Shown here: piece by piece, positions 22,663 to 56,690 of the stretch
Layout: every line of letters starts with the position of its first letter
Numbering within the stretch: the stretch's first letter is position 1
Source of the DNA: an uncultured Verrucomicrobiae bacterium
GTDB taxonomy: Bacteria > Verrucomicrobiota > Verrucomicrobiia > Limisphaerales > Palsa-1400
DNA: 64,000 nucleotides
Assembly (NCBI GenBank): GCA_963707025.1
Contig: CAVPOM010000018.1
Location: forward strand, 448,001 to 512,000
Direction: 5' to 3'
Notes under the pieces: model-generated
Databases searched by the model: none
Seen by the model: only the letters and a program-made list of their open reading frames with translations
What the model was told of the DNA's origin: nothing
Made by a program: the position numbers and the translations under genes

Positions 22663-22886
22663 GGCTGGGCCTCAGTCTTTCCGATAGGCAGATACCAGGA
22701 TATCTTGAAACTGCTGACGAACCTCTCCTCGCAGCAGCTTCACGCTCAACTGATAACCAAATCCAGCCTTTTCAAGTTGTGCCGCAACGACCGGGAAGCA
22801 GTCCCGACTTTGTTCTGAGGAGAGCGGGTGCAAAATCATGCCGCTTCGACGTTTCCTCAGGCCACCGCGGCGCGTCCCAGAACTTC

Positions 22887-23615: not shown

Positions 23616-23616
23616 G

Positions 23617-25200: not shown

Positions 25201-25254
25201 CAGGGAAAGAGACGTGCAGAAATTAGAATCTTGCTTGCTACAGCAAGCCCTTTA

Positions 25255-27042: not shown

Positions 27043-27069
27043 CTTAGTGGAACCACAAGCATCTCCAAC

Positions 27070-29895: not shown

Positions 29896-30027
29896 GGGCT
29901 CAATATTGTTTATCATACGATGCTGAAGCAAGACCCATGCCAAGACCCACCCGGTTAACCCTTCAGAATCTCCGCGCATCGAAAAGAAGACATTTAAAGC
30001 GCACCAATTATGCCGCAAAGTGCTTAC

Positions 30028-32474: not shown

Positions 32475-32507
32475 GCCAGTAAAGGCGGAACATATCGCCA
32501 GAAGACC

Positions 32508-33287: not shown

Positions 33288-33309
33288 AGATCATGCCGTC
33301 ATGACAGGA

Positions 33310-34455: not shown

Positions 34456-35891
34456 AACTGGAAGTAAATAAACTGGGTCTTGCGAAAAACGCCGAACAGT
34501 ATCACGCCGAGAATCATGAGCGTATAAGCGGCCCAGCGCAACACACCTGGCATCATGGAGAGCCTGTACCTGAATGAAAATTTCGGCTCAAGAAATTGAA
34601 TCCCTTCCAGGGTGATTATCGCCAATATGGCGGCGGGAAAATGTTTCAGTTGAAACTGCTCTGTCGTGATGGATGCGAAGTCCCAATTGGAATAGAAGTG
34701 CGTGAAAACGTACCAAGCGTCCCCCACACTCTTGGCGCGAAACACCACCCAGGCCGCCAGCACGAGTGCAAAGGTCGTGACCATGCTCACGGCGCCGCGC
34801 ACGGAGCCGTTCGGATCCAGACCCAGGGCGCCAAAGAAACGGTCGCGCAGCCCCTGGCCCGCCCTGCCTGCCAGAAGGTAAAAGCCGTTGAGAATGCCCC
34901 AAACGACGTAGGTCCAATTGGCCCCATGCCACAGGCCGCTGATGCCAAAAGTGACCAGGATGTTAAACACCCAGCGGCGCATTGCCACGCGGTTGCCACC
35001 CAATGGGAAGTAAAGATAATCGCGGAACCAGGTGGAAAGGGAAATGTGCCAGCGGTGCCAAAATTCGGATATCGAGCGGGAATAATACGGAGTGTCGAAA
35101 TTCTCCATGAGACGGAAACCCAGGATGCGCGCCGCTCCAATGGCGATGTCCGAATAGCCGGAAAAGTCGCAATAAATCTGGTAGGTGAAGAAGAACGTTG
35201 CGATGGTCAATTGGAGGCCGTTGTAGTTGTGGGGTGCGGCGTAAACGTCGTTCACATATAAGGCCAGGCGATCGGCCACGACCAGTTTCTTGAAGAATCC
35301 CCACGCCATCCGCTTGAGGCCGGAGGTGACGCGGTCATAGTCGAAGCGGTGGTCCTCGTAGAACTGGTGGAGCAGGTTTTGCGGACGTTCAATCGGACCG
35401 GCCACCAACTGCGGGAAAAACATCACGTATGTGGCATAGGTGACGAAGTTTGTCTCGGCCCGGTATTTGCGCCGGTACACTTCCACCACATAGCTGAGGC
35501 TTTGGAAAGTATGAAACGACAGGCCGATGGGCAGAATAATATGCGCCACCACCGGCGGCAGGCGCCACCCCACCAGATTGGCAAGCCCGACAAACGTTCC
35601 GGTGAAGAAGTTGAAATACTTAAAGACAAAGAGAACGGCGCACGTCGAGACGATGCTCAGCACCAGCAGCGCCCGCCGACGACCGCCCTCGCTTCTCTCG
35701 ATGTAAATTCCAGCTACATAGTCAATCCCAATCGTGACAAAAAGGATCAGGATATAGACCGGGATGAACGCCATGTAGAACACGCAACTGGCCGCCAGCA
35801 ACATCGGCACCCGCAGCCCGCGCGGCAGCGAAAAGTAAAGCGCCACCATCAGGGGAAAGAAGACCGCAAACTGAATGGAATTGAAGAGCAT
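34452..35891 (-). CDS. MBOAT O-acyltransferase (AlgI/DltB family), copy 1
   Basis: Same motifs and same 479-aa length as 31035-32474. Confidence 0.95.
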   Translation of the reverse strand: MLFNSIQFAVFFPLMVALYFSLPRGLRVPMLLAASCVFYMAFIPVYILILFVTIGIDYVAGIYIERSEGGRRRALLVLSIVSTCAVLFVFKYFNFFTGTFVGLANLVGWRLPPVVAHIILPIGLSFHTFQSLSYVVEVYRRKYRAETNFVTYATYVMFFPQLVAGPIERPQNLLHQFYEDHRFDYDRVTSGLKRMAWGFFKKLVVADRLALYVNDVYAAPHNYNGLQLTIATFFFTYQIYCDFSGYSDIAIGAARILGFRLMENFDTPYYSRSISEFWHRWHISLSTWFRDYLYFPLGGNRVAMRRWVFNILVTFGISGLWHGANWTYVVWGILNGFYLLAGRAGQGLRDRFFGALGLDPNGSVRGAVSMVTTFALVLAAWVVFRAKSVGDAWYVFTHFYSNWDFASITTEQFQLKHFPAAILAIITLEGIQFLEPKFSFRYRLSMMPGVLRWAAYTLMILGVILFGVFRKTQFIYFQF

Positions 35892-36007
35892 TTAGCCGCC
35901 TGCCTGGGGATCCGCCGTTTCGGTGGCTTGGGCATCTGGGCCACCGCCACCAGACGACCGTTGCCTGCGCCACCGGTGGGCTGTCCCAAGAGTCAAGGGG
36001 CAACGCA

Positions 36008-37387
36008 TCATACCGGGGAATACGACCCGCTCCGCGAGTCCGCCAGAGCTTCCGCCGTGCCGGCTGCGGCCTCCTCCACTTGCTCGGCTTGCCTTCGCCA
36101 CGGCTGTGGCTCAATGCAAACCAGGAGGAGCGTCAGCCATAACGAGCTCAAGCGGAAATAGTCGGTTTCGGAGAAATTATACAGGATAGCGATCACACAA
36201 ACGGCGAATGCCAGTCCCCCGTAGTGCGTGCCCCGCGCCATCCCGTCAACCGCGGTTTTGCCAAACGACAGCAACATGATCGCGAAGAGGGCCACGCCGA
36301 CGATGCCGCCATCAATATATTCTTCCAGATAGCCATTGTGCGCCTCGTTGATGACCATCACCTCCTCTCCAATTTCCTTGCCCATTTGGCCGTCCCAAAA
36401 GGAACGGAACCCGCAGCCAAGGATCGGATCGGTATGTTGGGCCTTAACCAGGCGCCAGATCTCTGTCCGGCCAGTGAGGGTTTTGTTCCGCCCCAGCATC
36501 GTGAGTATCTGGCCAGAAATGTCCAACGTGCCATCCAGAGCAATGCAGCAACAGACGACCCCCGCCATCGCCGCCAACGTAAGGCGGGGGCGGCGCAAAC
36601 GGGCATACCAGGAGCTGAGCAAGAGCAAGGGACTGCCGATCACCAAGCAAACAAGCGACGTTTTGCTGTCGCACGTCTGCAACAGCCAGAGGCCGCACAA
36701 CAGCATAGCCACATTAATACGTTTGTCGGTTTTATGCTCAGACTTGTGGTGCTCCCGATAGAGCAGAATCAGATCCAAAACAAGAATGAGGCCGAAGACG
36801 AGCACCGTCAACCCCAGCGAGTTCTTGCCAACCGTCAAGCCCCCAAAGCTGGCATCGCCACTCCGCAACGGGCGCCGCCCGATGGTCGGAAAGTACTTGA
36901 TGGTAATGACCGACAGTGGAAACAGGATGTAGGAACATCTGACATAAACGGTTCGAATGGCCTCCAGCGGATTCTTCTGGGCCAGAAAAACCAAGGCAAC
37001 AAGGACACAACCGAAGTCCTTGCACACACGTTTCAGCGCCACAAACGGATGTTCCGCCCACATCATGCTGATGGCAAAGAACAAATACATCACCAGCAAG
37101 GCCTTGTTCTGAGCCGCAAAGTCGCCCCATCGCATCTGCCGCTGGAACAGGACGATGATCGAGGCTCCCATGAGCGCGCTCATGGAAAGCAGGTCAACGG
37201 TGGTGTTCCCCGGATCGGTGGCGCTGCCGCTCCCAAACCAAGCCCCCACCGGTCGCGAGCCGCTTATCAGCAGCCAGAGGAAGGGAATCCACAATGCTTT
37301 TGACTCAAAGTGGCGGCGCTTGAGATCTTGACGAAACATCCAATAAATCAGGACCAGGCAGCCCAGGAGCGCTAATTTCGGCGGCAT
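36008..37387 (-). CDS. O-antigen ligase/Wzy polymerase family protein
   Basis: Multiple TM helices; KNSLG, SKTS, LTGRTEIW, GCGF..FW, AHNGYLE. Confidence 0.88.
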   Translation of the reverse strand: MPPKLALLGCLVLIYWMFRQDLKRRHFESKALWIPFLWLLISGSRPVGAWFGSGSATDPGNTTVDLLSMSALMGASIIVLFQRQMRWGDFAAQNKALLVMYLFFAISMMWAEHPFVALKRVCKDFGCVLVALVFLAQKNPLEAIRTVYVRCSYILFPLSVITIKYFPTIGRRPLRSGDASFGGLTVGKNSLGLTVLVFGLILVLDLILLYREHHKSEHKTDKRINVAMLLCGLWLLQTCDSKTSLVCLVIGSPLLLLSSWYARLRRPRLTLAAMAGVVCCCIALDGTLDISGQILTMLGRNKTLTGRTEIWRLVKAQHTDPILGCGFRSFWDGQMGKEIGEEVMVINEAHNGYLEEYIDGGIVGVALFAIMLLSFGKTAVDGMARGTHYGGLAFAVCVIAILYNFSETDYFRLSSLWLTLLLVCIEPQPWRRQAEQVEEAAAGTAEALADSRSGSYSPV

Positions 37388-37393
37388 ACGATT

Positions 37394-39262
37394 CTACATC
37401 TCCCTTTCTCTGACGGGATTGATGCCCAGCGCGCCCAACATTGTACCCATGTGAAAACAAAGTTTTACCAGGTAGCGCATGAAAAGATGATGGCCGCCCA
37501 AGTGCAGAAAGGGCAACGCCACCGCATAAAGCGGCACGGCCGCGGCCGCTTTGATGAGACGCCCGCCTCGTCCTTCGGGATGGAGATAAGAGTGGTGACC
37601 CCGCAGCAAGCCGCGGCTCAACAAAACGCTTCGTTTCCAGCGCTTTGGTGGAACATACTCGTGGACCACTGCCTCATTGCACCAGATAAATTTGTGGCCT
37701 TTTTCCATCATCCGCCGAAAAAAGTCCATGTCGCCGCCGCTCGCCGCAAATTGCGGCAGAAAAACCGGGTCAAGCCCTTGCACGATGCGCTTGTGAAACA
37801 ACACGTTGCCCGTGCGCGTCTCCGTCCAAGACATGACAAAACCAGTCGGATGCTCGGGACGATCGTAGAGACGGGAGCGGCGAATCCACTTCGGTGCGCT
37901 GTCGTCAAAAAAAGGCCGCACAGGCCCCAGCACCCCGGCCACTTGATGTTGGGTCAAGGCCAGGTAATGGTTTAACAGCCAGTCGTTCTCCGGAAATTCG
38001 TCGTCGTCAATGAAAGCGATGGCGTCCCCCTTGGCCAGCGCGATGGTCAGGTTCCGGACCAATGAAATGCTCCGGGCCGGCTCGGCGCCATAAGTCATCT
38101 CAATCGGGCAGCCACGCCGCATTTCTTCGACGACCGCGCGCCCCGATTCCGCCGGATCATTGTCGGCCACGACAATGGAGTAGGCAAAAAGGCCATCGGT
38201 CTTAAGGCGGCCCAACTCCGTCAATAAGCGTTTGAGCCATGCCGCCCGCTGGTAGGTGCAAATACAAACGCTGATGTGCAGGGGACTTTGCTGGCTTCTG
38301 GATTGTGGGCCGGTGGCGGCGCTGGCGGCGGTCCCGCCAACTGCAGCCGGGCGTTCCATCTTGTCAAGCTTCAGCACGATTTCATCGGCCCGCACTTTGG
38401 AATGTTTGAGGCCGCAAAAAGTCAGCAGCCGGCCGCCATGATCAGAGATCTTGATCAGGTACCACATGAACAGGCGGCCGCTGGCCAACGCCAGGAAGGG
38501 CAGGGCAAGGGTGTAAAGAGGAAGGGCTATCAGAGACTTGACTACTTTCTGCAAACGATCCGTCGGATACTTGAGGGAAACCTGTCCCCGATAGAAAGCT
38601 CGTCTGAGCAAGTAGCGACGCGTCTGCCGCTCCTTTGGCACCAACTCGTGGGCCACCGCTTCATCACACCAAATAAAAACATGCTTCTGTTCGGACATCC
38701 GCCGGAAAAAGTCCATATCCTCGCCCCCGGTTCCGAACTTCCGGTCAAAGGGCTCCGCCACCCCGGCCAGGATCGATCGGCGAATGAGGACGTTTCCGGT
38801 CCGGCACCCGGTCCAGTCTATGTCATGGCCGGTTTCGTGCCTGGGACGAACAAAGATCCTCACGTCAAGAATCCGCGCCTTCGACGCTTCCTCAAAGTAA
38901 GGTTCCACAGGTCCCAGCACCCCGGCCACGTTGTGCTCCGTACAGGTCTTGAAGAGCTGCAAGAGCCAATCTTTCTCGGGGTATTCGTCATCGTCAATGA
39001 AGGCGATGAAATCTCCTTGGGCTTGCCGCACGGCCGTGTTCCGGACCGCGGCGATATTACGCTCCGGCTCAACGCAATAGACCAATTCCAGGCGCTTCGC
39101 AAATTCCGCCGCCGTTGCCTTCGCCGATTGCTGCGCATCATTGTCCACGACCACGACTGAATAAGTAAACAGGTCTCCGGTGTCCTGCTTTTCCAATTCC
39201 TGCAACAACCGCGTCAGCAGCGCAGGCCGATGGTAAGTGCAGATGCAAACACTAATGTGCAT
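37394..39262 (-). CDS. Tandem GT2-GT2 glycosyltransferase
   Basis: Two repeats of HISVCICTY.R ... FIDDDE.P ... RTGNVL ... DMDFFRRM, joined by an Ala/Gly/Ser linker. Confidence 0.92.
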   Translation of the reverse strand: MHISVCICTYHRPALLTRLLQELEKQDTGDLFTYSVVVVDNDAQQSAKATAAEFAKRLELVYCVEPERNIAAVRNTAVRQAQGDFIAFIDDDEYPEKDWLLQLFKTCTEHNVAGVLGPVEPYFEEASKARILDVRIFVRPRHETGHDIDWTGCRTGNVLIRRSILAGVAEPFDRKFGTGGEDMDFFRRMSEQKHVFIWCDEAVAHELVPKERQTRRYLLRRAFYRGQVSLKYPTDRLQKVVKSLIALPLYTLALPFLALASGRLFMWYLIKISDHGGRLLTFCGLKHSKVRADEIVLKLDKMERPAAVGGTAASAATGPQSRSQQSPLHISVCICTYQRAAWLKRLLTELGRLKTDGLFAYSIVVADNDPAESGRAVVEEMRRGCPIEMTYGAEPARSISLVRNLTIALAKGDAIAFIDDDEFPENDWLLNHYLALTQHQVAGVLGPVRPFFDDSAPKWIRRSRLYDRPEHPTGFVMSWTETRTGNVLFHKRIVQGLDPVFLPQFAASGGDMDFFRRMMEKGHKFIWCNEAVVHEYVPPKRWKRSVLLSRGLLRGHHSYLHPEGRGGRLIKAAAAVPLYAVALPFLHLGGHHLFMRYLVKLCFHMGTMLGALGINPVREREM

Positions 39263-39268
39263 GAGACG

Positions 39269-40024
39269 TTATTGGCCCGAGGGTTGTGAGCTTGGGGCGA
39301 GGCTGGGAGCGGCCTCGCCAGCGGCCGCGAGGCGCTTCGGCGCGTCATGCTTCAGGACGACTCCGCAATTATCTACAAAAAGTGACACGGCCTTGCGGCC
39401 GGAGACCAGGCGGAAAAGTGCATCAATACTCGAAAAGAGCGGCCTAATCAGGGGCCATCGGCACAGTCTCGTCGTCATTTTGCCCTCCACCAGCTTGATC
39501 ATCAGGACAGAATAGCCGTGGTCCTCTGCGATGCGAACGACGTTCTTGGGCAGAATAGTCAGTCGCAGGTAGCTCGGAAAGGGGGTCCCCTTGTATTTCA
39601 TAATCTTATGATATACAAAAACATGGAACCAGTGCGGGGTGAATTTCGTCATCAGGCCTTTGAAGGACGCAACATGGGGAAAACCCAGCACCACCAATCC
39701 CCCGGGCTTGACGCTGTTGAAAAGGTTGCGCAGCGCCTCCTGCGGCCGGGACAAATGTTCAATCACATCCCAGCAAACCGCGAGGTCAAATTCGTTCATC
39801 GCCAGGGGATAGGTCTGCAAATCACCGAGAATTTTTTCCTGGATCGCCGTGTTCCGATCTAATTGAACTCGGGAAATGTCGATCCCAACCGATTTGCTTA
39901 TCCCGATGAACTTGAAATGGCTGGCTGAACCACAGCCGGCCTCCAGAAACTTAAGGTCCGTCCTGCCTTCAAACTGCCGGTTGACCAGCTCGGCAATCTC
40001 GTCACGAAACATGTTTGCTGCCAT
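39269..40024 (-). CDS. Class I SAM-dependent methyltransferase
   Basis: LEAGCGS, GIDIS, VIEHL, VKPGG. Confidence 0.88.
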   Translation of the reverse strand: MAANMFRDEIAELVNRQFEGRTDLKFLEAGCGSASHFKFIGISKSVGIDISRVQLDRNTAIQEKILGDLQTYPLAMNEFDLAVCWDVIEHLSRPQEALRNLFNSVKPGGLVVLGFPHVASFKGLMTKFTPHWFHVFVYHKIMKYKGTPFPSYLRLTILPKNVVRIAEDHGYSVLMIKLVEGKMTTRLCRWPLIRPLFSSIDALFRLVSGRKAVSLFVDNCGVVLKHDAPKRLAAAGEAAPSLAPSSQPSGQ

Positions 40025-40077
40025 AAGAGTTCCTTTATTGGTTGGAATTTGTTGCGAACTTATGCGGACCGATCTCG

Positions 40078-41907
40078 TTAGTTTCCGCTCTCAATTAAGT
40101 CTCTCTCAATGAATTCGCTGGTCATCAGCTTATGTATGGCCAGCGTATAATTACCCGTCCCCCGGGTATGGTCTTGCACCATCTGCTCCACCCGCCGTCC
40201 GTCAAGATAGGGCCGCCGGAGCGTGCCGGGGTCCAGCAAGACTTCTTTGACACGGTCCGCCAGCTCGTGGCGATACCAGAGGCGGAAATGGTAATACTTC
40301 TGGTGCCCCAGAAACTGGCGTTCCACGTGCAGCGGCCCCAGAACGCGATCCACTTTGGCCAGCCATTGCGGCATGCCGTAGTCGTAGCGGTCCTCGGCCC
40401 TGGGCAAAAGCTCTTTCCAAAAGAGAAAGGCCTTCTCCGGCAGGAAGCGCGGACATGAAAGGTTGCCCCGGTCGGTGGGCGCGCCCACCAGCGCGGAATT
40501 GACGTCCTCGGTATAGCAATAAGCCAGTTGTTTGTTAAGCAGGAGGCCCGGCGGCGCCTGGTAAGCCAGACGCACCAATTCGTTGTCCAAGTAGGGCGAA
40601 CGAATCGTCAATTGGCTGTTCTCCTCGGCAAACCGGCAGTAATGATGCCAGGGCACCTGCTTGAAGGCGATGAATGAGAGACGATGTCCTTTGAATTCTT
40701 CCGCGAAGGTCGAGGCCGCATTGCGATAGATCGGCACGAAGTCGGGGGCGAACATCTCCTCATCCACATAATCGGGCTTGAACGCCACGCCCGATCGCAA
40801 AATCTCGCTCCCGTAGTTGCCCGTCATGCGAACGGGCGCAATGTCCCTGGCCCGCCGATTGACCACCATCCCCACTGCTCCGCTGACATCCATCGCGCCG
40901 TCGGTTATATAGACACACCGCTTGGCCTGGTCGAAATACTCCGGGAAGAAACTTTGGTCCACCGTGATGACCTGGTGCGGCTGATGGCAGCGTCTCGCCA
41001 CCTCACGCGATATGCTTACGTCCTCGCAGTCCCGGTACATCCCCCCAAACGTGTAACACGGAAGTTGGCCGGGGGCGCAAGGCGCGGCGGCAATAATCAT
41101 CCGGCTATCCAAGCCACCCGTCAACGACAAGCCCACCTTCTGGCGTCCGCCAAAATACCGCGGCAGGATGCGTGTGAAAGTTTCCTTCAGGCGCTGGTAA
41201 TATTCCTCGGCCGGCAAGGGAGCCAGGGCTTCCCAGTCCTCCTTGCGAAAATACGTTTCCTTCTGCACAGGCACCCCGGGCCGGAACGTCCACCTCGAGC
41301 CGGGCGGAAGCAGGGAGATACCCTCGAAGAGCGTCCGGTTTTGCAGCGCGCAACCGCACGAGAAAGCCTCCCCTAAACTCCGCAGGTCCAGCCGCCGCAG
41401 TTGCGGCACGGTTTGCAGCAGGGACTTGGCTTCGGACGAAAAGTAAAATCCGTCCCCGCCTTCGTGATAATAAACCCGGGCCAGCCCGTAGCGGTCATTG
41501 AACAGGACGACCTTCTTTTCCCGCAAATCGGCCAGCACGCCGTTAAAAGTCCCGTTGAGCCGTTCGAAGAACTTCGTTCCCAGTTCCTCATACAAATGAA
41601 CCAAATAGGCGGCGGTCGAGCCTGAACAGGCCTGGCCGGCGGCCTGGAGGGCCTGAACTTCGGACGCATCGGCGAAATGCTCGCCCCAAAATATCAGGAC
41701 AATGTCGCGCGCTGCGTTCCAGATCGGCAGACAATCCGAGTACGACCCTTGGTGACAGATCCATCCGACGGCAATTCCCAAAGAATCCTGCTGGAGCGAA
41801 CCAGCAGTATAAAAGGACTCATGGAACATGGGCTTGAGCATGGCCTCAAGCACAGCCTTTCCCTCACTCGGAGAGTGTTTGCCGATGATTCCTGTGATTC
41901 CTGGCAT
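40078..41907 (-). CDS. Asparagine-synthase-like ATP-dependent amide ligase lacking the N-terminal Cys
   Basis: Begins MPGITGII; NGTF, DRYG, FSSEAKSLL, SLTGGLDSR, TGNYG, RSPYLD. The track's longer start runs through the tRNA. Confidence 0.88.
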   Translation of the reverse strand: MPGITGIIGKHSPSEGKAVLEAMLKPMFHESFYTAGSLQQDSLGIAVGWICHQGSYSDCLPIWNAARDIVLIFWGEHFADASEVQALQAAGQACSGSTAAYLVHLYEELGTKFFERLNGTFNGVLADLREKKVVLFNDRYGLARVYYHEGGDGFYFSSEAKSLLQTVPQLRRLDLRSLGEAFSCGCALQNRTLFEGISLLPPGSRWTFRPGVPVQKETYFRKEDWEALAPLPAEEYYQRLKETFTRILPRYFGGRQKVGLSLTGGLDSRMIIAAAPCAPGQLPCYTFGGMYRDCEDVSISREVARRCHQPHQVITVDQSFFPEYFDQAKRCVYITDGAMDVSGAVGMVVNRRARDIAPVRMTGNYGSEILRSGVAFKPDYVDEEMFAPDFVPIYRNAASTFAEEFKGHRLSFIAFKQVPWHHYCRFAEENSQLTIRSPYLDNELVRLAYQAPPGLLLNKQLAYCYTEDVNSALVGAPTDRGNLSCPRFLPEKAFLFWKELLPRAEDRYDYGMPQWLAKVDRVLGPLHVERQFLGHQKYYHFRLWYRHELADRVKEVLLDPGTLRRPYLDGRRVEQMVQDHTRGTGNYTLAIHKLMTSEFIERDLIESGN

Positions 41908-41929
41908 TCTGGTGCCTGTCAAACGAAGT

Positions 41930-42004
41930 TGGAGCGGGCGGGAGGAATTGAACACTCCATCTCCTGGTTGGAAACCAGGCACTCTGGCGTTGAGCTACAC
42001 CCGC
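41930..42004 (-). tRNA. tRNA-Gly (anticodon TCC), atypical D-loop and T-stem, CCA encoded
   Basis: GCGGGTG TA GCTC AACGCCA GAGT G CCTGG TTTCCAA CCAGG AGAT GGAGTG TTCAATT CCTCC CGCCCGC T CCA: 75 nt, 7-bp acceptor, 4-bp D-stem, 5-bp anticodon stem, U73. Confidence 0.9.
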
Positions 42005-42011
42005 AGACAAA

Positions 42012-43013
42012 TTATCCTTCTTCAACCATGATTTTCTTCTCTTTTGTTGAGGGCGCCGAATGGAGCGCCTCCGGCCGACCAAGCTTCGATTCATAATACT
42101 TGGCCCTCACTTTCAACAGAAAAGCAAGGCAATGAGAAGGCAGCAGATTTTTTACGCCAAGGTGAAGCCTCAACTTCAACGCCATTTTCCCTCGAGGCGT
42201 CAGGGGGATATAGTATCTCGGATAGGACAGCTTCTGAAAGCCCATCCGCCTTTTGAACTCAGTAAGCGGGCTGCTTTCCTTTTTTCCGTAGCTGTACTTG
42301 CCGTACGTGAAGTGCGTCAGGCCCTTTTGGCAGGAAATCTCAACCGCCTTGGCGACCAAGGCGCTGGCAGGGCGCTTGTCGAAATGGGCCATTTTTGATA
42401 CGATTTGCATAATTCTCGCCGTCTTGTCCACGTAAACGAGTTGGATGAACCCAATCAATTCCCCGTCCGCCTCGGCCGCAAGAAAAGCGTCACGCCCAAG
42501 GAAAGTGGAATTGTTTCTCTTGACCGTTTCAAAGTCCTCCTGGTAATGCTTGTTGGGGAAACCCTGTCGGACAGGCACTTCATCATAAACCCCCTTGATC
42601 CCGAGAACGAGATCGTCGTCCAAAGGCGCTATCGTTACTTTAACACCGCGTTTTTCTGCCGCGCGGACATTTCTTCTCGAATCCTGCGAAAGTCCTTTCC
42701 ACCAAGCCTCATAGCTCGTAAGACAAATCGCGGCAAAATTGTCCCATTCCATGTGGTATTGCGTGAACTTTGGGTTTAGTTGATGAATAGATTGCGCGAA
42801 GGTAAAAATGTCCGCCAGCAGCTTTGAATTTTTTAGCTTGGCTACAAACTCAGCGGGCTCTTCAATAGGCTGGCCTTCCGCGTAATCCTCTGCATTGATG
42901 TGGGCGGTTTTAAGCCATCGGCCCGTAGTCACAATCTCGCGCTCTTCAATCATGGCCGATGGCAGGCCGATTTTCCCGCCCCGTATTTGATTTTCTTTCA
43001 TGCCATCCTTCAT
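42012..43013 (-). CDS. FemAB-like GNAT-fold protein
   Basis: WWKGLSQDSRRNVRAAEKRGV and LTEFKRRMGF resemble the Fem 'RRNIRKA.K.GV' and 'L..FK..FG' segments. Confidence 0.72.
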   Translation of the reverse strand: MKDGMKENQIRGGKIGLPSAMIEEREIVTTGRWLKTAHINAEDYAEGQPIEEPAEFVAKLKNSKLLADIFTFAQSIHQLNPKFTQYHMEWDNFAAICLTSYEAWWKGLSQDSRRNVRAAEKRGVKVTIAPLDDDLVLGIKGVYDEVPVRQGFPNKHYQEDFETVKRNNSTFLGRDAFLAAEADGELIGFIQLVYVDKTARIMQIVSKMAHFDKRPASALVAKAVEISCQKGLTHFTYGKYSYGKKESSPLTEFKRRMGFQKLSYPRYYIPLTPRGKMALKLRLHLGVKNLLPSHCLAFLLKVRAKYYESKLGRPEALHSAPSTKEKKIMVEEG

Positions 43014-43226
43014 CAGGAATGTGGTGGCCCCGACCTGGATCCAGGCTCAACAAGTCCAGCACCGGATTTCTTGCCAGCGCGACGAGTTTTTCTTAAGTCT
43101 CTTGGGCGACAGGCTCAGTTTGTGCCATCAAGGGCTGCGGTTTGCGCTGTTGGAACCCGACGCCGAGCAAAAGTCGCTGGCATTGCCGGGTACCTAAGCT
43201 GGCTTGGTATTTCTGGCGCATAAGTG

Positions 43227-44351
43227 TTAATTCGTCTTGAATTGCATGAGCGGTGGCCGTGCCGGCGCGCCGTCGCGCGCGGCGACGGCGTACTCCACCG
43301 CGCGCAGAAAATTCTGGAACATGTTCTCGGTCGAAGCCTCGCGCATCACGTCCTCGCGGGCGTTCCGCGAAAAGGCCTCCCGCTCCCCTTCATTGTCCAA
43401 GAGGTAAAGCATCTTTTCCTTGAGCTGGGCGACATCGTTTTGCGGCACTATGAACCCATTGCGGCCCGTTTTGAGAAGGTGAATCTCCGGCGGTTGCAAG
43501 CCGGCTTCGGTCACAACTGGCAGGCCCCAATAGAAGGCCTGATTCAAACCCAATCCGATGTGACCGGGCACCACGAAAATGTCCGCCGCCTTGAAAAGCC
43601 GGCTGACTTTCAGATCTTGGGGGTCGTGCAGCGCGCCCAGATAACGCGTGTTTTTTGGATTGATCCGGGCCTGCAGCGCCTCCGGCATCCCGGCCCCGAC
43701 AATCACCGCGCCGATGTCGTCCCGCTCAACGACCCGGAATACTTCGATCAGATGTTCGACTTTTTTCCGCTCGCCCGACAGTCCCATGGTGCCGACGAAC
43801 AAGACCAGGAGCTTAAAGGGCAGGCCGAATTCGGCCTTGATTTGATTTTTGCTTTCGTTGACCGCGGGAATGTCCTCAAAATTGATGGTGTTGTTGGCGG
43901 CAATCGCCTTGGCGCGATGGCGCGGCCTGAGCTGGTCAACCTGGTTGGCGGAATACAAAATGATCGCGTCGCTCAATGCGTGAATGTGGTTGAACAGCCA
44001 ATAGCGCCAAACACTCTTGGGTAAGTCCAGGTTGATGCCTTTCGTCCAGCAAATCACCGGGATGCGCCTCCATTTCAGCCAATGAATCAACGGCCAGAAT
44101 ATCAGCTCTTTCATGTGCAGGAAAAGAATGACCACCTCCGGTTTCGTTGCGCGCACCAGCGCGGCGTAGCGAGGGAAGCTAAAAGGCTCTTCCCGAAGTG
44201 CAAAGCGCACGGGGCGCGGGTTGCCCGGTTGCACGCCGCTGGTCAGCGTTTTGAATTCCCAGCCGTGCTCGCCAAAGCGGCGCGCCAAATAATTATAGAC
44301 CGACACGCGATAGTGCAGGACTTTGCTGGAAATCAGAAGAACCGTTTTCAT
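43227..44351 (-). CDS. Glycosyltransferase family 4
   Basis: LFVG, ADIFVVPG, GLNQAFYWGLPVVT, GRNGFIV. Confidence 0.88.
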   Translation of the reverse strand: MKTVLLISSKVLHYRVSVYNYLARRFGEHGWEFKTLTSGVQPGNPRPVRFALREEPFSFPRYAALVRATKPEVVILFLHMKELIFWPLIHWLKWRRIPVICWTKGINLDLPKSVWRYWLFNHIHALSDAIILYSANQVDQLRPRHRAKAIAANNTINFEDIPAVNESKNQIKAEFGLPFKLLVLFVGTMGLSGERKKVEHLIEVFRVVERDDIGAVIVGAGMPEALQARINPKNTRYLGALHDPQDLKVSRLFKAADIFVVPGHIGLGLNQAFYWGLPVVTEAGLQPPEIHLLKTGRNGFIVPQNDVAQLKEKMLYLLDNEGEREAFSRNAREDVMREASTENMFQNFLRAVEYAVAARDGAPARPPLMQFKTN

Positions 44352-44412
44352 CAAATGGCTGACGCTGTTGTCGTCTGTCGATCACGCATATGGCAAACTA
44401 CGAGCTTTATGG

Positions 44413-44886
44413 CTAATTTTCCCCTTTTTCTTTCAATCTCCGATAGTCGGTAATCTTGATGTTTTCCTTCACGATTTTAGCAGGAACGCCGGCAACGAGG
44501 CAATTGGGCGGAACATCCTTGAGCACTACGGCGTTGGCCCCGATGACCACGTTTTCACCAATCTTGATCGGACCAAGAATCACGGCACCGGCGCCGATGA
44601 GCACATTATCTCCGATGACCGGCGCTTCATCCAGGATGGAACTGGTGGCGCCAATCGTCACTCCCCCGTGAATGATGCAATTGCGGCCGACCACACACTT
44701 CCGATGAAAGACCGTGCCGAGGCCCCCATAACCAATCCGCGTGTTGGGGCCGATGTCGGCCGACGGCGGGATGACGGAGGAAAAGACAATCCGGATGAAG
44801 ACCTTGATGAGCGATGGGAGCACGGGCACCCGGGCTTTATAGAGTGTTCTGGATAGCTTGTAAAAGAAATAGACGAGGAGGTACAT
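44413..44886 (-). CDS. Serine-acetyltransferase-like hexapeptide O-acetyltransferase
   Basis: IGDNVLIGAGAVILGPIKIGENVVIGANAVV, VAGVPAK. Confidence 0.88.
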   Translation of the reverse strand: MYLLVYFFYKLSRTLYKARVPVLPSLIKVFIRIVFSSVIPPSADIGPNTRIGYGGLGTVFHRKCVVGRNCIIHGGVTIGATSSILDEAPVIGDNVLIGAGAVILGPIKIGENVVIGANAVVLKDVPPNCLVAGVPAKIVKENIKITDYRRLKEKGEN

Positions 44887-44929
44887 AAAACCGTCTGGCC
44901 GCCTGTCTCCCATCATACGCCCGCTGTAA

Positions 44930-45106
44930 ATGCGGGACTTGCTTCTAAACGCTGTGATGACGGCGGCGTTGGTAAAATGCGCAAATTGCTCGGAGGCAAT
45001 AGCGGTTGAGTGGCAGAACCACTGGATCGTTGGCCAGATGGTCAAGTTTGTCACCCGGCACTTCATTGGAAATGAGCAGAACTTTCTTGTGAACAGGGTC
45101 GGCCAT
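44930..45106 (-). pseudogene. Eroded remnant of a GT4 paralogue of 43227-44351
   Basis: MADPVHKKVLLISNEV matches MKTVLLISSKV; in another frame LTIWPTIQWF matches LIFWPLIHWL. Confidence 0.45.
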
Positions 45107-45147
45107 AAGAGCTAACCTCAACCGTGATCATGGAAGCACACCGGCGC

Positions 45148-46365
45148 TTACCGTGATAGCTGACCTTCCTGCCGGGCGACCTTGGCCTTTTGGTGATGCA
45201 AGAGAATGGACAAGGCGGCAAACATGGTCGCCTGGCCCCAATGCAAGGTCGGCGTCTTGTTCGTCATCAGAGGATATTTGCGATAATAAAAATAGCCGGC
45301 CGGGTCCTGCATGTTGGCGATGGTCCACAGCGCCACCTTCTCCGCCATGTCAATGCTCCGGGAATCCATTTCATGGAGGTTGACCAGCGTTTGGATCCCT
45401 TGGGAAGCGCATTGGATATCCAGCGGAGAAGTCTTGTGATCGTAGTAGCGCGGTGTTCCGTCCGGCCCGAAAAAAGTATCCACGTAGAACTTGTACCCTT
45501 TTGCCAACGCGGGCTGAAATTTTGAGTCGCCGCTGTGGCGGCCATAATGGTCGATCGCCTCCAGGTTGTAGCCCGTGTGGAAGGAGTCCACCCAATGCCA
45601 GCGGGGATGCGAGCCGTAATTCCAAGCCCCATTGGGCATTTGATCTCGCACGGTAAACCGGACGGCTCGTTCGGCGATCTGCGTGTAAAGCGGATTCGGC
45701 GAGTGCGAATGGACACGGGCCAGCAGGCCGGCCCCCAACACATTGGAATTGTGGATGCCATGCTCGCCCTTGACCGGTTGGCCGCCGTTGGCCGGAATGT
45801 AGTTCAAGCAAATGTCCTGGCCCGTCTCAATCCAACCCAACTCCTTGGAGATAAACTCCGCCACGCCTGAGGCGACCGCCAAATCCTGTTCGAGAGAAAA
45901 AGCCTCGTAGGCGTCCAAAAAGGCGTGGCCGATCAGGCTGGTCCACACCACTGTGGGTGTGCCACAGGGAATTCGTCCGCCGCGTGATTCATAGTCGAAA
46001 TGATTTCCCCAAGCATATCCCTTGAATTCGGGGCAACGATGCTGCCTCAGCCAATCCAAACAAAAGCGCATTTTCACCCGGTAGGCGTCCGAGCCAGTCG
46101 TTTGAAAGAGGCGAAGATAACCTTGGGCAAAGAAACCCATGGCCTTGCTGGATTGGGCAGGTTTGATGCCCAACAGCGGACGCAGGTTGATGGGAAACCT
46201 GCGCACCGCCTGCTGCCAAAGGCGTCTGAGCAAGGGGCGCCCGAGGGTGAAGAGACCGGCATAAGGGGATGATAAACCATCGAACGTGTCGTAGGCTCGA
46301 TAATCTTTGGCAGCAACCCACTCTTCCAGTTTCAGAACCGAGCTGCTGATTTTTTTATCTGACAT
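45148..46365 (-). CDS. Conserved EPS-locus protein, probable (alpha/alpha)6 barrel
   Basis: YDTFDGL, WGNHFDY, IHNSN, DQMPNGAWNYG, VDSFHTGY, MQDPAGYFYY repeats. Confidence 0.7.
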   Translation of the reverse strand: MSDKKISSSVLKLEEWVAAKDYRAYDTFDGLSSPYAGLFTLGRPLLRRLWQQAVRRFPINLRPLLGIKPAQSSKAMGFFAQGYLRLFQTTGSDAYRVKMRFCLDWLRQHRCPEFKGYAWGNHFDYESRGGRIPCGTPTVVWTSLIGHAFLDAYEAFSLEQDLAVASGVAEFISKELGWIETGQDICLNYIPANGGQPVKGEHGIHNSNVLGAGLLARVHSHSPNPLYTQIAERAVRFTVRDQMPNGAWNYGSHPRWHWVDSFHTGYNLEAIDHYGRHSGDSKFQPALAKGYKFYVDTFFGPDGTPRYYDHKTSPLDIQCASQGIQTLVNLHEMDSRSIDMAEKVALWTIANMQDPAGYFYYRKYPLMTNKTPTLHWGQATMFAALSILLHHQKAKVARQEGQLSR

Positions 46366-46384
46366 AATATAGAAAGGACGTTCC

Positions 46385-47626
46385 TTAACGGCAGAGCGAT
46401 TCGTATGCGTTCAGCAAGTTCTTCCCGACCACCGACCACTGCAACTCCCGTTCCACCCGGGCCCGCCCAAAGTCCCCCATTTCCTTCCTCAAACCGGGGT
46501 CGTCCATCAATTTGGCGATGCCCGCCGCAAAGGCCTTCTCGTCGTTGGGCGGCACATACAAGGCCGCCTGCTGCGCGGAAAACCGCGTCTCCTTCAGGTC
46601 GAACGTCACGATGGGTTTGCTGAACGCCATGTACTCCATGATCTTGATCCAGGTCGAAACGTCATTGAGCGGGCTGGAAGGGTCGGGATCTACACAAATG
46701 TCGGCGGCCGCCAAGTTTGACCTCAAATCTTCTTCCGAGACAAAACCGGTCAGTTCCAGGCATGCTTCCAAATGCAATTCCCCGGCCAGAACGCGCAGAT
46801 CCGGGAGGGAATCCCCGCTGCCCATGACCACACAATAAAAATCGGTCCGTTTAAGGTCGTGATACAGATAACCGAGCGCACGGAGCAAATAATCCACCCC
46901 GTCCTGCGGATTCAAAGCGCCGATATAACAAAGGATCGTTTTCTTCATGGCGCGCAGGCGTGGACTGGGCGCGGGCGGGGTCATGCGCGAACCGTCCGGG
47001 CCGTTCCGGACCACAAAAACAGTCTTGGGATCGCGCCCCCCGCGCTCAATCTGGATTTGCTTGTACGATTCGTTGGTGGCGACAGTCACATTGGCCAGCC
47101 GAAGACTGCCCGCCTCAAAAAAGCGCAACAACCTGGAATAAAGACCGTCCTTGGCTCCGTAACGGGACTGATACAGTTCCGGACAAAGATCGTGGTGGTC
47201 AAAAACAAACTTCTTGCCCAACAACTTGTAGGGAAGGGCGACCAGAAAAAGTGTGTCCGGCGGATTGTGGGCATGCAGGACATCAAACCCTTCCTTCAGC
47301 AAGATATACGCGCTCAGCGCCAGGCAGCCTCCGGTGAAAGTTCCGTACTCGGCCATGTAGCCCAGAAAAGACTTGGCCTTGAGCCAGGCCAACCCCAAAG
47401 GACCGGCGTCTCGGGAGGGCGTCTTGCTGAACAACTCGCAAGGACGCATTCGATAGGCTCTCACGCCGTCAATTACCTCGGTGAAGGCCTGGCCCCGTTT
47501 GCGCCACGCAATGACCGATACCTGGCAGCCCGCCCCGGCCAGCAAGGTCGCCTCATTGCGCACCCGGGTGTCTTGAGGGTAGAAATTCTCCACAAGCATC
47601 ACGATGCGCTGGCGTTTTGCGGGCAT
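46385..47626 (-). CDS. Glycosyltransferase family 4
   Basis: DTRVRNEA, HAHNPPD, FDHHDL, KIMEYMAFSKPIV. Confidence 0.92.
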   Translation of the reverse strand: MPAKRQRIVMLVENFYPQDTRVRNEATLLAGAGCQVSVIAWRKRGQAFTEVIDGVRAYRMRPCELFSKTPSRDAGPLGLAWLKAKSFLGYMAEYGTFTGGCLALSAYILLKEGFDVLHAHNPPDTLFLVALPYKLLGKKFVFDHHDLCPELYQSRYGAKDGLYSRLLRFFEAGSLRLANVTVATNESYKQIQIERGGRDPKTVFVVRNGPDGSRMTPPAPSPRLRAMKKTILCYIGALNPQDGVDYLLRALGYLYHDLKRTDFYCVVMGSGDSLPDLRVLAGELHLEACLELTGFVSEEDLRSNLAAADICVDPDPSSPLNDVSTWIKIMEYMAFSKPIVTFDLKETRFSAQQAALYVPPNDEKAFAAGIAKLMDDPGLRKEMGDFGRARVERELQWSVVGKNLLNAYESLCR

Positions 47627-47653
47627 ATCTGGTCGGTCCACTCGAGGAGCGGC

Positions 47654-48961
47654 TTACCAACAGATCCCATCGTAGTTGGCCAGCCCGGCCGCCGGTTGGC
47701 GCCAAATGCGCACCAGATCGAGCACCGCTTTGCCATCACGATTCTTTTCCAACGCCTCTATAAACTGAGGCGTCTTCTTGCTGACCACGATCAGGTCGCT
47801 TTGGGCGAAAACGTCGCCCAAGTTTGGCACCATCAGAGAGGAAATGTGGGGAATCGTCTGCTCGATGTAACGCCGGTTGGCGCCGATCAATTGCGAGAGC
47901 GAAACCTCTTCGTCAAAGATCGCCAACTTGTATCCCTTGCCCAAAAGACGCTCTATGAGAATGACGATGGGGCTTTCCCGCAGGTCATCCGTGCCCGCCT
48001 TGAAGCTCAGGCCCAGCACTCCGATCCGCTTTTTGCCCGTTCGTTGCACCAATTCGAAGGCATGATCCAGATGCTTGCGATTGCTTTCCAAAAGCGACCC
48101 CAGCACCGGCAGGTCCACGTCCTGGCTCTTGGCTTTGTGCAAGATGGCGCGCAAGTCCTTGGGCAGGCACGAACCGCCAAAGGCGAAGCCCGGCTTCAAA
48201 TAATATGGGGAGAGGTTGAGCTTGGCGTCTTTGCAAAACACTTCCATCACCGAGAAACTGTCAATGCCCAGGCTCTTGCTCAGGACTCCTATTTCATTGG
48301 CGAAGCAAACCTTCAGCGCGTGGAAGGCATTGCAGGCGTACTTAATCATCTCTGCCGTCCGGATCGCTGTTTTTTCCAGCGGCGCGTTGATCGTTTCGTA
48401 GAGTTTGGCCACCGTTTCGGCGCCGCGGGCGTCCAGGCTGCCTATGACCGTGAAGGGCGGCGCGTGAAAATCGGCCACCGCGGTGGTTTCGCGCAGGAAT
48501 TCCGGGTTCATGCAAACCCCGAAATCCCGCCCGGCAACTTTGCCCGATCTCTCCGCCAGCAGCGGAATGATCCTTTCCTCCACCGTTCCGGGCAGCACCG
48601 TGCTGCGGACATTGACCACGTGGTAGGCGCCGGCCTGGCGCAACGCCTCCCCCAGTGATGCGGCTACCCGCTGCACATAATCCAGGCAGAGGCTCCCGTT
48701 GTGGTTGCTCGGCGTGCCCACACAAATGATGGAAACATCGCCCAATTCCCCGATCTCTTGCCGCGCCCGCAAACGGCCGGCCTTCACTCCCGCCTGAATC
48801 AACTCATCCAATCCCGGCTCAATCAGCGGACTTTGCCCGCTGTTGATCAGGGCCACCTTGTTGCGGTCCGTATCAATGCCGGTGACCTCGTGGCCCAACT
48901 CAGCCAGACAGGCGGAGGTCACACAGCCAACGTACCCCAGGCCAAAGATATGGACTTTCAT
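47654..48961 (-). CDS. GDP-mannose/UDP-glucose 6-dehydrogenase (AlgD-like)
   Basis: FGLGYVGCV, RSTVLPGT, NPEFLRET, YLKPGFAFGGSCLPKD, FKAGTDDLRESP. Confidence 0.9.
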   Translation of the reverse strand: MKVHIFGLGYVGCVTSACLAELGHEVTGIDTDRNKVALINSGQSPLIEPGLDELIQAGVKAGRLRARQEIGELGDVSIICVGTPSNHNGSLCLDYVQRVAASLGEALRQAGAYHVVNVRSTVLPGTVEERIIPLLAERSGKVAGRDFGVCMNPEFLRETTAVADFHAPPFTVIGSLDARGAETVAKLYETINAPLEKTAIRTAEMIKYACNAFHALKVCFANEIGVLSKSLGIDSFSVMEVFCKDAKLNLSPYYLKPGFAFGGSCLPKDLRAILHKAKSQDVDLPVLGSLLESNRKHLDHAFELVQRTGKKRIGVLGLSFKAGTDDLRESPIVILIERLLGKGYKLAIFDEEVSLSQLIGANRRYIEQTIPHISSLMVPNLGDVFAQSDLIVVSKKTPQFIEALEKNRDGKAVLDLVRIWRQPAAGLANYDGICW

Positions 48962-49233
48962 AATTTACAATCGAGCCGCACGCGGTTGCCGAATCAAGCC
49001 CGCTCTCAAAAACCAAAGATCAAGGAGCGGTAGATCACTTTCACCCCGAAAAGTTTATCACGGTCTGGGAGCACTGCGTCAAGTCCTTAGTGCGTCGGGG
49101 CTTGCATACGGTGACGCATTTTACAGTTAAGCGGCCATTCCACTGGGGCGTGTTATCCAGATCTGTTCGGATCTTTTCCCGGGTCCTGGGCGCGCCAGCG
49201 TTTTCCACCGCCGGCGCGAGGGCCGCCGTGGGT

Positions 49234-50148
49234 TCAGCCGGCCCCACGGCTGCTCCGCACGTAATCCGCAACCTGCCGGGGTGTTCCTTCCCAAAAGTGT
49301 CCGCCGTATTTGGACCGCGCATATTCGAGAAATTGCTCATAAAACGCGGCTGGGAACGTTTTCCAGTTTCCATTCCCTCCGGAGAAATCTACATAGTCTG
49401 GATGCACGTTCATCAGAACCATGCCGCCCTGCCTCGCGATCCAGTCCAGCTTCCTCAACCAAATCTCCGGGTTGCGCTCCCGCATCAGCAGGAACAGGGT
49501 TGAATCTTGTGGCAGGGTGTAAGGCAGTTCCACGAATCCCCGTCCACGCGCCCCCTCGCACCAAAATGGAAAAACCGTTCCCACCCCGTCGGGCTGCGGT
49601 TCAAACGGATCCGTGTCGAAAGTCGAGGCGTCGTATTCGATGTTCAAGTCCTCCAGCCAATTCAAGTTGTGAAACATGAAACCGGAGCGGAAGCCGACCG
49701 CGCCCCACGCTGCCAGATGCTCGTTGATCAGCACGGCCTTGGCCACGAATTTCTTCCGGTCACGGTAAAGTTTGCCGTCGTGGTACAGGTCATGCACGCC
49801 GACTTCAAACCCGGCGGCGGTCAACTCATCCCGCAACTCTTTTGTCACACGGTAATCCCCTTCGGGGATAAAGTTGAAGGAGGAGCGAAACCCCCATTTC
49901 TCTTCCAGTTCCATCAGTTGCCGGCATTTATCGAGGCCCGACTGGCTTTCCACATCATGCGTCAAGACTATGGCAAATTCCTTCCCATCCGGCCAGCCAG
50001 GCCAGCCAGGCCTCTTCCCAGACCCGGGCAGAACAGGCCAGAACTCGCGGGTATGCCGGCGCGTCCGCCGCACCAGCCAGCCGTGAACGGCCAGTCGGAG
50101 TGGGCGCGGAACCAGCGGTTTAAACTGATAGTAAAGCCGGGTGCGCAT
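49234..50148 (-). CDS. Polysaccharide deacetylase-like protein
   Basis: WPDGKEFAIVLTHDVE, GVHDLYHDG, GFRS, HPDY. Confidence 0.8.
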   Translation of the reverse strand: MRTRLYYQFKPLVPRPLRLAVHGWLVRRTRRHTREFWPVLPGSGKRPGWPGWPDGKEFAIVLTHDVESQSGLDKCRQLMELEEKWGFRSSFNFIPEGDYRVTKELRDELTAAGFEVGVHDLYHDGKLYRDRKKFVAKAVLINEHLAAWGAVGFRSGFMFHNLNWLEDLNIEYDASTFDTDPFEPQPDGVGTVFPFWCEGARGRGFVELPYTLPQDSTLFLLMRERNPEIWLRKLDWIARQGGMVLMNVHPDYVDFSGGNGNWKTFPAAFYEQFLEYARSKYGGHFWEGTPRQVADYVRSSRGAG

Positions 50149-50317
50149 CACAAGGTGCGGCGGTTGCCCCGCCTGAAAAGGTAGGAAGGCACAGGGGTAA
50201 TCTTGGCAATGCTGCTTCAGACTTTTTCGGCCTCCTCTATCAGTTATCTGGCTTCCCTTAAATTCCCCGCCCCCGTTGGCGGTCATCATCAGAATCCCAA
50301 TCGCCCGCGGGCTGTCC

Positions 50318-52603: not shown

Positions 52604-52680
52604 TTCAATCTACATCAGGCTGCTCAAAACACCATCATTGTTTAACATTTAACACTCCTCGTGCCCTGGTTGTTCAATCA

Positions 52681-54899: not shown

Positions 54900-54918
54900 G
54901 TTTCTCCAATGGGTTGTT

Positions 54919-55464: not shown

Positions 55465-55494
55465 AAGCGTTTGGCCGGGGGGATCTCCAAAACG

Positions 55495-56649: not shown

Positions 56650-56690
56650 TTGTTGTCTTTTATACGCTGGTTGTGTCGCCTTTTATACGC

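Follow-up and report, generated by a model that had tools for sequence, protein, structure and literature searches.

A bulged tRNA-Gly(UCC) beside a Fem-like gene in an exopolysaccharide cluster is a probable non-ribosomal glycyl donor

The window, which is the whole stretch of 64,000 nucleotides that was analysed, contains a Wzx/Wzy-type exopolysaccharide (EPS) cluster with genes for an initiating transferase, a Wzc-like kinase, Wzy, Wzx, glycosyltransferases, MBOATs, and an exosortase. The only tRNA gene that ARAGORN found in the window lies inside this cluster, between an ORF for a Fem-like protein, which stops 7 nt ahead of the tRNA, and an ORF for an AsnB-like protein, which begins 22 nt past it. 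The features used below, and the basis on which each was assigned, are as follows.

about 3228..58718 (~55 kb), minus strand: Wzx/Wzy-type exopolysaccharide cluster holding the cassette (HMM scans, ORF reading)
40078..41907, minus strand: AsnB-like ATP-dependent amide ligase, 609 aa, starting MPG, with a TGGLD loop (HMM, alignment, fold)
41930..42004, minus strand: atypical tRNA-Gly(UCC) of a Thr/Gly family tied to the Fem-like gene (ARAGORN, Rfam, family alignment and model)
41941..41958, minus strand: T-arm, G49-C65, G50-C64, A51-U63, G52-C62, bulged U (41954), G53-C61 (homologue alignment)
41970..41972, minus strand: anticodon UCC, in which C35 and C36 are GlyRS determinants (ARAGORN; identity table of PMC9976931)
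41985..41991, minus strand: D-loop AACGCCA, with C for G19 at 41987 (sequence)
42012..43013, minus strand: Fem-like double-GNAT protein, 333 aa, proposed aminoacyl-tRNA-dependent transferase (model, fold searches, weak HMM hits)
45148..46365, minus strand: unnamed protein with GH88- and C5-epimerase-like look-alikes (homologue in 43/80 cassette loci)
47654..48961, minus strand: nucleotide-sugar dehydrogenase, for uronic acid supply and candidate carboxyl partner (HMM)
52681..53688, minus strand: second FemAB-like protein, TIGR03019-like below cut-off, without an adjoining tRNA and used as a control (HMM)
53766..55040, minus strand: DegT-family sugar aminotransferase, adjoining a hexapeptide-repeat ORF and a GFO/IDH/MocA oxidoreductase (HMM)

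The ORF that heads the cluster (58167-58718) is presumably RfaH/NusG-like, as taken from its translation. Homologues of the unnamed protein at 45148-46365 are often mislabelled as delta-aminolevulinic acid dehydratase. Two tandem pairs of MBOAT and SGNH-like (DUF1574-like) genes flank a polysaccharide deacetylase at 30028-35891, the two MBOATs being 81% identical, and the region 15513-20451 encodes a LuxC-like reductase, a LuxE-like synthetase, an AMP-binding enzyme, and a short-chain dehydrogenase, which possibly form an acyl-supply module. A promoter scan found no promoter-like sites near the tRNA, the same result as was obtained with shuffled sequences.

The window tRNA scored 54.5 bits against Rfam RF00005, where the extra U was modelled as a T-stem insertion, and 92.4 bits against covariance model R1 of the Thr/Gly family. 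It carries G1-C72, C2-G71, G3-C70, C35, C36, U73, and an encoded CCA, and the bacterial glycine identity set as tabulated in PMC9976931 (Table 1) is complete in it. The anticodon stem is paired at 5/5 positions, and the initial annotation, which described intact GlyRS determinants, an encoded CCA, and a perfect anticodon stem, had read these features correctly. The T-loop (UUCAAUU) and anticodon loop of this copy are ordinary. The T-arm reads GGAG-U-G / CCUCC; in a single-sequence fold the acceptor, D, and anticodon stems were kept and the T-arm was refolded (z -2.84), and the T-stem register was therefore tested on homologues. This was done with alignment A2, consisting of 58 distinct members (5 from a DNA search and 53 protein-anchored loci, with 5 duplicates excluded). 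The two registers originally offered for the T-stem fared differently: the one with a bulged U was 99.7% paired over the 58 homologues, with double-sided changes at 50-64 in 4 sequences and at 51-63 in 10, whereas the one with mismatches was only 63.4% paired and was rejected. The full bulged cloverleaf, with an acceptor of 7 bp and a T-stem of 5 bp, was also 99.7% paired, with both-sided changes at 11/21 pairs. The bulge was present in 55/58 members, the remaining three all carrying a weak G50.U64, and the D-loop GG in only 8/58; among ordinary Thr/Gly tRNAs from the genomes examined the corresponding counts were 0/51 and 51/51. The D-loop AACGCCA with its G19 to C change and the altered T-arm are thus defects common to the family, as a check on orthologues had been meant to establish. 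Loss of the D-loop GG by itself was also seen in degenerate tRNA arrays of the same genome. As far as the aligned sequences tell, the T-stem bulge and the fold of the window tRNA go beyond chance or decay.

A larger set, in which 154 of 156 distinct members were parsed and whose metagenome part was chosen by a pattern demanding the bulge, was compared with the 51 ordinary Thr/Gly tRNAs. The D-loop GG was found in 26/154 family members and 51/51 controls. In seven-base anticodon loops, Y32 was retained in 48/151, U33 in 123/151, and R37 in 136/151 family members, each being present in 51/51 controls; A34 occurred in 23 family loops and no control, and the loop was fully ordinary in 26/151 family members and 51/51 controls. 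N35N36 was GU or CC in 151/151 seven-base loops, and U73 was present in 154/154. The 3-70 pair tracks the anticodon, G3-C70 occurring in 11/14 Gly and 0/137 Thr members.

Other cassette loci hold RNAs of different identity. Ala-type bodies (G2-C71, G3.U70, G4-C69, A73) with a replaced anticodon loop were found in seven loci (L359, L361, L363, L366, L368, L372, and L373), about 0-100 nt from the Fem-like gene, the replacement being a GCAA or GAAA tetraloop in five loci and a loop of 5-6 nt in two. Five of these RNAs lie between the Fem-like and AsnB-like genes, and one locus has five tandem copies (L366:2423-2893). ARAGORN mis-called the Ala-type RNAs as Leu, Arg, or Cys, or missed them. The label Phe given to L254 in the tree was discarded, since this RNA is Ala-type with a tetraloop. 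A Leu-type RNA with a long variable arm and a tetraloop (L071:6111-6199) and an Asn tRNA whose T-stem has two mismatches (L099:6005-6079) are each located directly behind a Fem-like gene, and two Val-type RNAs, also directly behind such a gene (L077:3439-3517 and L358:1391-1465), keep A35 and C36 in odd loops. The identity table of PMC9976931 lists no anticodon determinants for AlaRS or LeuRS. Going by these sequences, each cassette RNA appears to keep the features that its synthetase reads and to lose those that the ribosome needs; the tetraloop relatives cannot decode.

Among 5019 candidates, 2402 were relatives of the Fem-like protein encoded next to the tRNA, and almost all of these are unnamed. 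The predicted model of the protein (pLDDT 88) has a double GNAT fold spanning the whole chain. Foldseek placed Sba18 and Sbb17 (with or without streptothrisamine), FemX, and MprF/aaPGS at ranks 1-15. Pairwise superposition with VIA-align gave Z 18.2 for FemX (6snr; rmsd 3.8, 261 aligned), 17.5 for 4ii9 (rmsd 4.2, 266 aligned), 16.9 for Sbb17 (rmsd 4.0, 245 aligned), and 14.3 for MprF (rmsd 3.7, 251 aligned), and the best single-domain acetyltransferase, an acyl-CoA GNAT, reached Z 12.7 (rmsd 3.8, 132 aligned). By sequence, the best PDB relatives of the profile were acetyl-CoA GNATs (PaiA, E 1e-4, over 84 positions) and not Fem proteins. The window protein had no match to FemAB (PF02388) or TIGR03019; weak matches to FemAB were obtained for 19/48 homologues (E up to 0.1, best 6e-6) and to LPG_synthase_C for 5/48, and alignment of the protein with the TIGR03019-like protein of the window had a probability of 2%. 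A basic helix at residues 110-123 includes invariant R113, N115, and G123, and K254 is invariant in an FK motif; the helix and K254 may correspond to the FemX acceptor-stem helix and Lys305. Residue 114 in this helix, chosen post hoc among 332 columns, is K in 107/110 Thr, R in 10/13 Gly, and N in 7/7 Ala cassettes. Five independent pairs were available, of which 2-3 changed in the same direction and none in the opposite one (p 0.25-0.5), so that the link between residue 114 and tRNA identity, not being significant on independent pairs, is a lead only. By analogy with FemX and Orf11, drawn from portions of PMC12945691, PMC7826273, and PMC4052509, the Fem-like protein would transfer glycine from Gly-tRNA.

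The AsnB-like protein starts with MPG and lacks the catalytic Cys1. Its ATP-pyrophosphatase loop, T263-G264-G265-L266-D267, is of the SGGLD type, is invariant in 38/38 aligned homologues, and aligns with the loops of TsnB9 and AsnB. The nearest folds were those of TsnB9, AsnB, and beta-lactam synthetase, and the match to the lasso cyclase HMM was below cut-off. Without Cys1, an enzyme with AsnB chemistry obtains no ammonia from glutamine and needs another amine. The gene was found in 72/80 cassette loci, and in 70/80 it both lacks a Cys start and lies downstream.

These cassette loci were collected by a genome scan, which found nothing when the single Fem-like protein was used as query and found relatives when a protein alignment was used; at least 476 stretches were confirmed among 600 listed, and the best 80 were used. 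The 80 loci derive from Verrucomicrobiota, Acidobacteriota, Pseudomonadota, Nitrospirota, Thermodesulfobacteriota, Methylomirabilota, and others. An intact family tRNA is present in 57 of these best 80 (50 Thr and 7 Gly), a decayed family tRNA together with a Leu-type RNA in one, and another tRNA in four (3 Asn and 1 Val-like). The remaining 18 have no tRNA within 5 kb, although three of them are cut just downstream, and 12 of the 18 form one mostly acidobacterial clade; a private tRNA is therefore not obligatory. The family tRNA is located at -150 to +600 nt of the Fem stop in 53/57 loci (median 47). The position of the cassette tRNA varies, being upstream of the Fem-like gene in L003 and L104, on the opposite strand in L064, and 2.7 kb away in L070 and L100, and so does its copy number, which is two in L067 and five in L366.

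Co-occurrence was also measured in the reverse direction, using a tRNA pattern that requires the bulge and recovers 52/58 known members. Among the metagenome matches listed there were at least 120 loci, of which 108 were of the family type; a Fem gene lay within 700 nt upstream in 98/102 family-type copies with at least 250 nt of upstream sequence and in 0/12 of the non-family matches. In a sample of 301 genomes of the order, all 13 pattern-positive genomes were among the 34 Fem-positive ones, these kin not being independent. The control, the second Fem-like gene, had a tRNA within 1.5 kb in 0/29 loci, compared with 16/29 for the cassette Fem gene at the same setting and 19/29 when Rfam and a scan of our own were added. 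Fem homologues were found in 0/400 other genomes of a phylum sample and in 4/251 genomes of an Acidobacteria-centred sample, two of the four with a family tRNA, and the cassette is therefore patchy. Searches of plasmids gave no match, and of seven pattern matches on viral contigs none was of the family type or accompanied by a Fem gene. The window tRNA is thus real, selected, and a member of a three-gene cassette, and the combination of enzyme and tRNA recurs, with other amino acids, in many bacteria from soil and freshwater.

Whether the cell has another tRNA for the same codon was assessed in the assembly of the source genome, which consists of 18 contigs and is 88% complete. At default ARAGORN settings no second whole Gly(TCC) was found in it, and allowing introns at a relaxed score produced thousands of false calls. 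However, the first 57 bases of an ordinary Gly(UCC), with G18G19, terminate a contig (G000:C18:1-57); this is the second copy that the initial annotation had proposed to look for, truncated where the contig stops. Contigs C6 and C13 begin with a matching 3' piece, which may instead belong to the ordinary Gly(CCC), which is cut at the start of contig C12. Whole Gly(UCC) copies with the same 5' part are present in two genomes of the same genus, G001 and G003 (L008 and L010). Among the best 30 matches per search, an ordinary tRNA with the same anticodon accompanied the cassette in 8/10 other cassette-bearing genomes, the exceptions being G723 (array-type copy only) and G724 (none). The idea, present from the outset, that selection to escape the ribosome and not random decay shaped this tRNA is supported by the paired cloverleaf, the shared defects, and the spare Gly(UCC), and its oddities would be explained by the adjacent Fem-fold transferase, a reason that had not been given before. 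Three degenerate tRNA arrays lie outside the window (C2:106545-112733, C8:72282-81806, and C4:150761-153834 of G000); many of their tRNAs lack the D-loop GG and have altered T-loops, and one gene is Gly(UCC)-like (C2:108186-108260).

Affinity for EF-Tu was estimated with the three-pair model of PMC3239215 (Table 2), in which the bulge has no term. The window tRNA is predicted at -9.4 kcal/mol. The mean of the Gly(UCC) class is -10.8 (sd 0.68), the staphylococcal non-proteinogenic tRNA comes to -9.5, and the ordinary Gly(UCC) of the genome, calculated by hand, to -11.0; the window tRNA exceeds the 1.3 kcal/mol outlier line of that source. On this model it may escape EF-Tu. The Thr members, also at -9.4, are only 0.4-0.6 kcal/mol under their class means and within the normal Thr range, and any EF-Tu escape among them therefore rests on the bulge and on decay of the anticodon loop. 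Identity of the window tRNA with Thr members reaches 84-86%, against 78% with the genome's own Gly tRNA; several Gly members retain a Thr-type anticodon stem, and L032 retains C3-G70. On an unrooted FastTree phylogeny of 163 Fem proteins, the Gly state required 7 changes against a shuffled mean of 12.6, the starred branches force 6 changes, and Ala occupies one side of a branch with support 82. Repeated switches of tRNA identity within the cassette are likely, the unrooted tree leaving their direction unset.

From these data, the window tRNA is probably a dedicated non-ribosomal glycyl donor for polysaccharide modification, and this is held with good confidence; the exact acceptor and ligase chemistry set out here is rated less than half as probable. 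Host GlyRS would charge the tRNA, given its intact determinants, and the weak set of pairs 49-65, 50-64, and 51-63, the bulge, and the broken elbow are predicted to keep it off EF-Tu and the ribosome. The Fem-like enzyme would then move glycine from Gly-tRNA to an amine on a polysaccharide building block, as suggested by fold, adjacency, and co-occurrence. The acceptor would most likely be an amino sugar attached to a nucleotide or a lipid, for which the oxidoreductase-acetyltransferase-DegT set at 53766-56649 might, as a guess, be the source; only 1/80 cassette loci has a DegT aminotransferase within 5 kb, and the amino sugar is therefore a candidate only. In the last and weakest step, the Cys1-less AsnB-like enzyme may adenylate a carboxyl, for example of a uronic acid, and join it to an amine that the substrate provides, perhaps the alpha-amine of the glycine just added, so that the polymer would be capped or cross-linked. 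Swapping the identity of the cassette tRNA (Thr, Gly, Ala, Val, Leu, or Asn) would alter the decoration. Several points count against the donor role: the ordinary anticodon and T-loop of the window copy, which might still decode GGA, the second Fem-like gene of the window, which could share or take the tRNA, the acetyl-CoA GNATs as best PDB sequence relatives, and the 18/80 loci without a tRNA.

Other explanations were weighed against this one. The donor role could be combined with a different chemistry, in which the amino acid ends as a uronic acid amide: the AsnB-like enzyme would activate the uronate, the alpha-amine of the tRNA-borne amino acid would attack it, and the Fem fold would present the tRNA or release the product. 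Such a route would supply the outside amine that a Cys1-less AsnB needs, and it agrees with the position of the ligase gene after the tRNA in 70/80 loci, with folds near TsnB9, AsnB, and beta-lactam synthetase, with sugar dehydrogenases in the cluster, and with no conserved aminotransferase nearby. Uronamides of Thr, Gly, and Ala are common. In part of PMC7685785, O antigens are described as carrying Gly, Ala, Ser, and allo-Thr in amide linkage. The route is nevertheless judged unlikely, since the known Fem-fold enzymes, in the portions of PMC12945691 that were available, pass the aminoacyl carbonyl to an amine or hydroxyl, and for the ligase a free amino acid would do, with no tRNA involved.

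A spare translational tRNA, or a decaying relic derived from an array or an integration site and present in the cluster by chance, would account for the ordinary anticodon loop here and would match the genome's degenerate arrays, also without D-loop GG; among the Gly codons of a crude ORF set, GGA accounts for about 12%. This is regarded as very unlikely in view of the near-complete pairing and compensatory changes, maintained while the neighbouring cassette proteins are only 41-50% identical, of the strict co-occurrence with one gene family, and of the tetraloop relatives unable to decode. The integration-site version was dismissed because there is no att repeat and the last 14-25 nt of the tRNA occur only once in the genome. 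Even less probable is a cis-acting role, in which the tRNA fold would mark a site of processing or regulation on the operon mRNA between the two genes. The 104-nt intergenic gap, the operon strand, the lack of a promoter-like site nearby, and the usually fixed place right after the Fem stop would suit it; yet the tRNA moves (upstream, to the opposite strand, 2.7 kb away, duplicated, or five-fold), and pair 3-70 of the acceptor changes together with the anticodon, which recognition by a synthetase requires.

The proposed dedicated donor of glycine has its closest parallel in staphylococci, where NP1-NP3 tRNA-Gly(UCC) serve FmhB(FemX), FemA, and FemB. Both systems have an extra Gly(UCC) beside an ordinary copy, GlyRS determinants and A51-U63 that are kept, and a partner with a Fem fold; the staphylococcal features are taken from parts of PMC4052509 and PMC7826273 and from Table 4 of PMC3239215. 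The staphylococcal tRNAs have lost G18G19 (UU or CU), whereas the window tRNA keeps G18 and has C19, and their T-stem has A49-U65, U50-A64, and A51-U63 in place of G49-C65, G50-C64, and A51-U63 with the bulge, so that similar predicted EF-Tu affinities are reached by different routes. The staphylococcal lineage is confined to staphylococci and peptidoglycan; the window family extends over several phyla, the window itself being part of a Verrucomicrobiota-type genome, belongs to a polysaccharide cluster, changes its amino acid, and, unlike the staphylococcal tRNAs, has a Thr-type body and is encoded beside its enzyme. The window system would work like the staphylococcal pair, but with another T-stem sequence, lineage, and pathway. 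Orf11, Sba18, and Sbb17 of streptothricin-related clusters, which were at the top of the Foldseek list (TM 0.56/0.64), share the Fem fold and carry out aminoacyl-tRNA-dependent acylation of an amino sugar, streptothrisamine. Orf11 uses Gly-tRNA according to the available portions of PMC12945691, which mention no dedicated tRNA gene; these proteins are only 14-15% identical to the window protein and act in a small-molecule pathway. MprF and other aminoacyl-phosphatidylglycerol synthases have the same catalytic fold and an aminoacyl-tRNA donor for an envelope component, but the 333-aa window protein has no membrane flippase domain, and MprF competes with EF-Tu for ordinary tRNA (PMC4052509, in part).

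TIGR03019 FemAB-related proteins of PEP-CTERM/XrtA EPS loci resemble the cassette in that a Fem-like gene lies in an EPS cluster, often near an AsnB-like gene; the cassette protein has no TIGR03019 match, and the function given for TIGR03019 is a curated guess. Directly behind a true TIGR03019 member (330.7 bits) in an XrtA-type EPS cluster, a Val-like tRNA was found (L159:1533-1610), and a second Fem family may therefore use private tRNAs. This tRNA and another Val-like one in an XrtA-type EPS cluster (L117:2979-3056) have an 8-nt anticodon loop and the same T-stem bulge. Among Cys1-less AsnB-like enzymes, beta-lactam synthetase, carbapenam synthetase, and lasso cyclases keep the loop, lack the glutaminase cysteine, and match in fold, but they are 15-16% identical, and the window ligase is fixed to a Fem-like gene and a tRNA, with a substrate that is only proposed. 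The allo-tRNA and selC* tRNAs have 8/4 or 9/3 folds with an acceptor of 8 or 9 bp (PMC7609411, in part), compared with 7 bp in the window tRNA. A full-text literature search, which covered few subscription journals and no supplements, found no description of the cassette, and none is mentioned in the available parts of PMC5389517 and PMC7609411, on non-canonical tRNAs, or in the outlier table of PMC3239215.

Dedicated non-ribosomal tRNAs are known mainly from the synthesis of staphylococcal peptidoglycan, and the available part of PMC4052509 calls it unclear how other aminoacyl-tRNA-dependent enzymes get their substrate past EF-Tu. A wider model is advanced tentatively and with somewhat less than even confidence. 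A mobile polysaccharide-peptidylation cassette would consist of a Fem-fold transferase, a Cys1-less AsnB-like ligase, and a donor tRNA selected for the synthetase and transferase only; its amino acid would be reprogrammed by tRNA swap, several donors being anticodon-less, and the bulge, recurring on different bodies, would serve as an EF-Tu antideterminant or as a handle for the transferase. Together the enzymes would cap or cross-link the exopolysaccharide with bridges of amino acids, like the Fem bridges in peptidoglycan. The family provides more than 150 natural variants of at least six identities, with which the needs of synthetase and transferase can be tested against those of the ribosome, and it points to an enzyme and a donor that may decorate exopolysaccharides with amino acids, the tRNA naming the amino acid to be expected in the polymer. 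It may also offer translation-silent tRNA scaffolds for engineering. For annotation, A34 Thr, 'Phe', 'Leu', and 'Arg' calls in such cassettes are not to be taken as decoders.

Two further tRNAs were recorded outside the window. One, called tRNA-Gly(CCC) (L113:2890-2965; G000:C18:390889-390964), has an Arg-like body (A20, G73) and a U3.G70-type acceptor and sits behind a lipoate-ligase-like ORF. The other is a family tRNA-Thr with A34 (L006:1501-2584, G002), which lies by transposase remnants upstream of another, unclassified kind of GNAT-like ORF.
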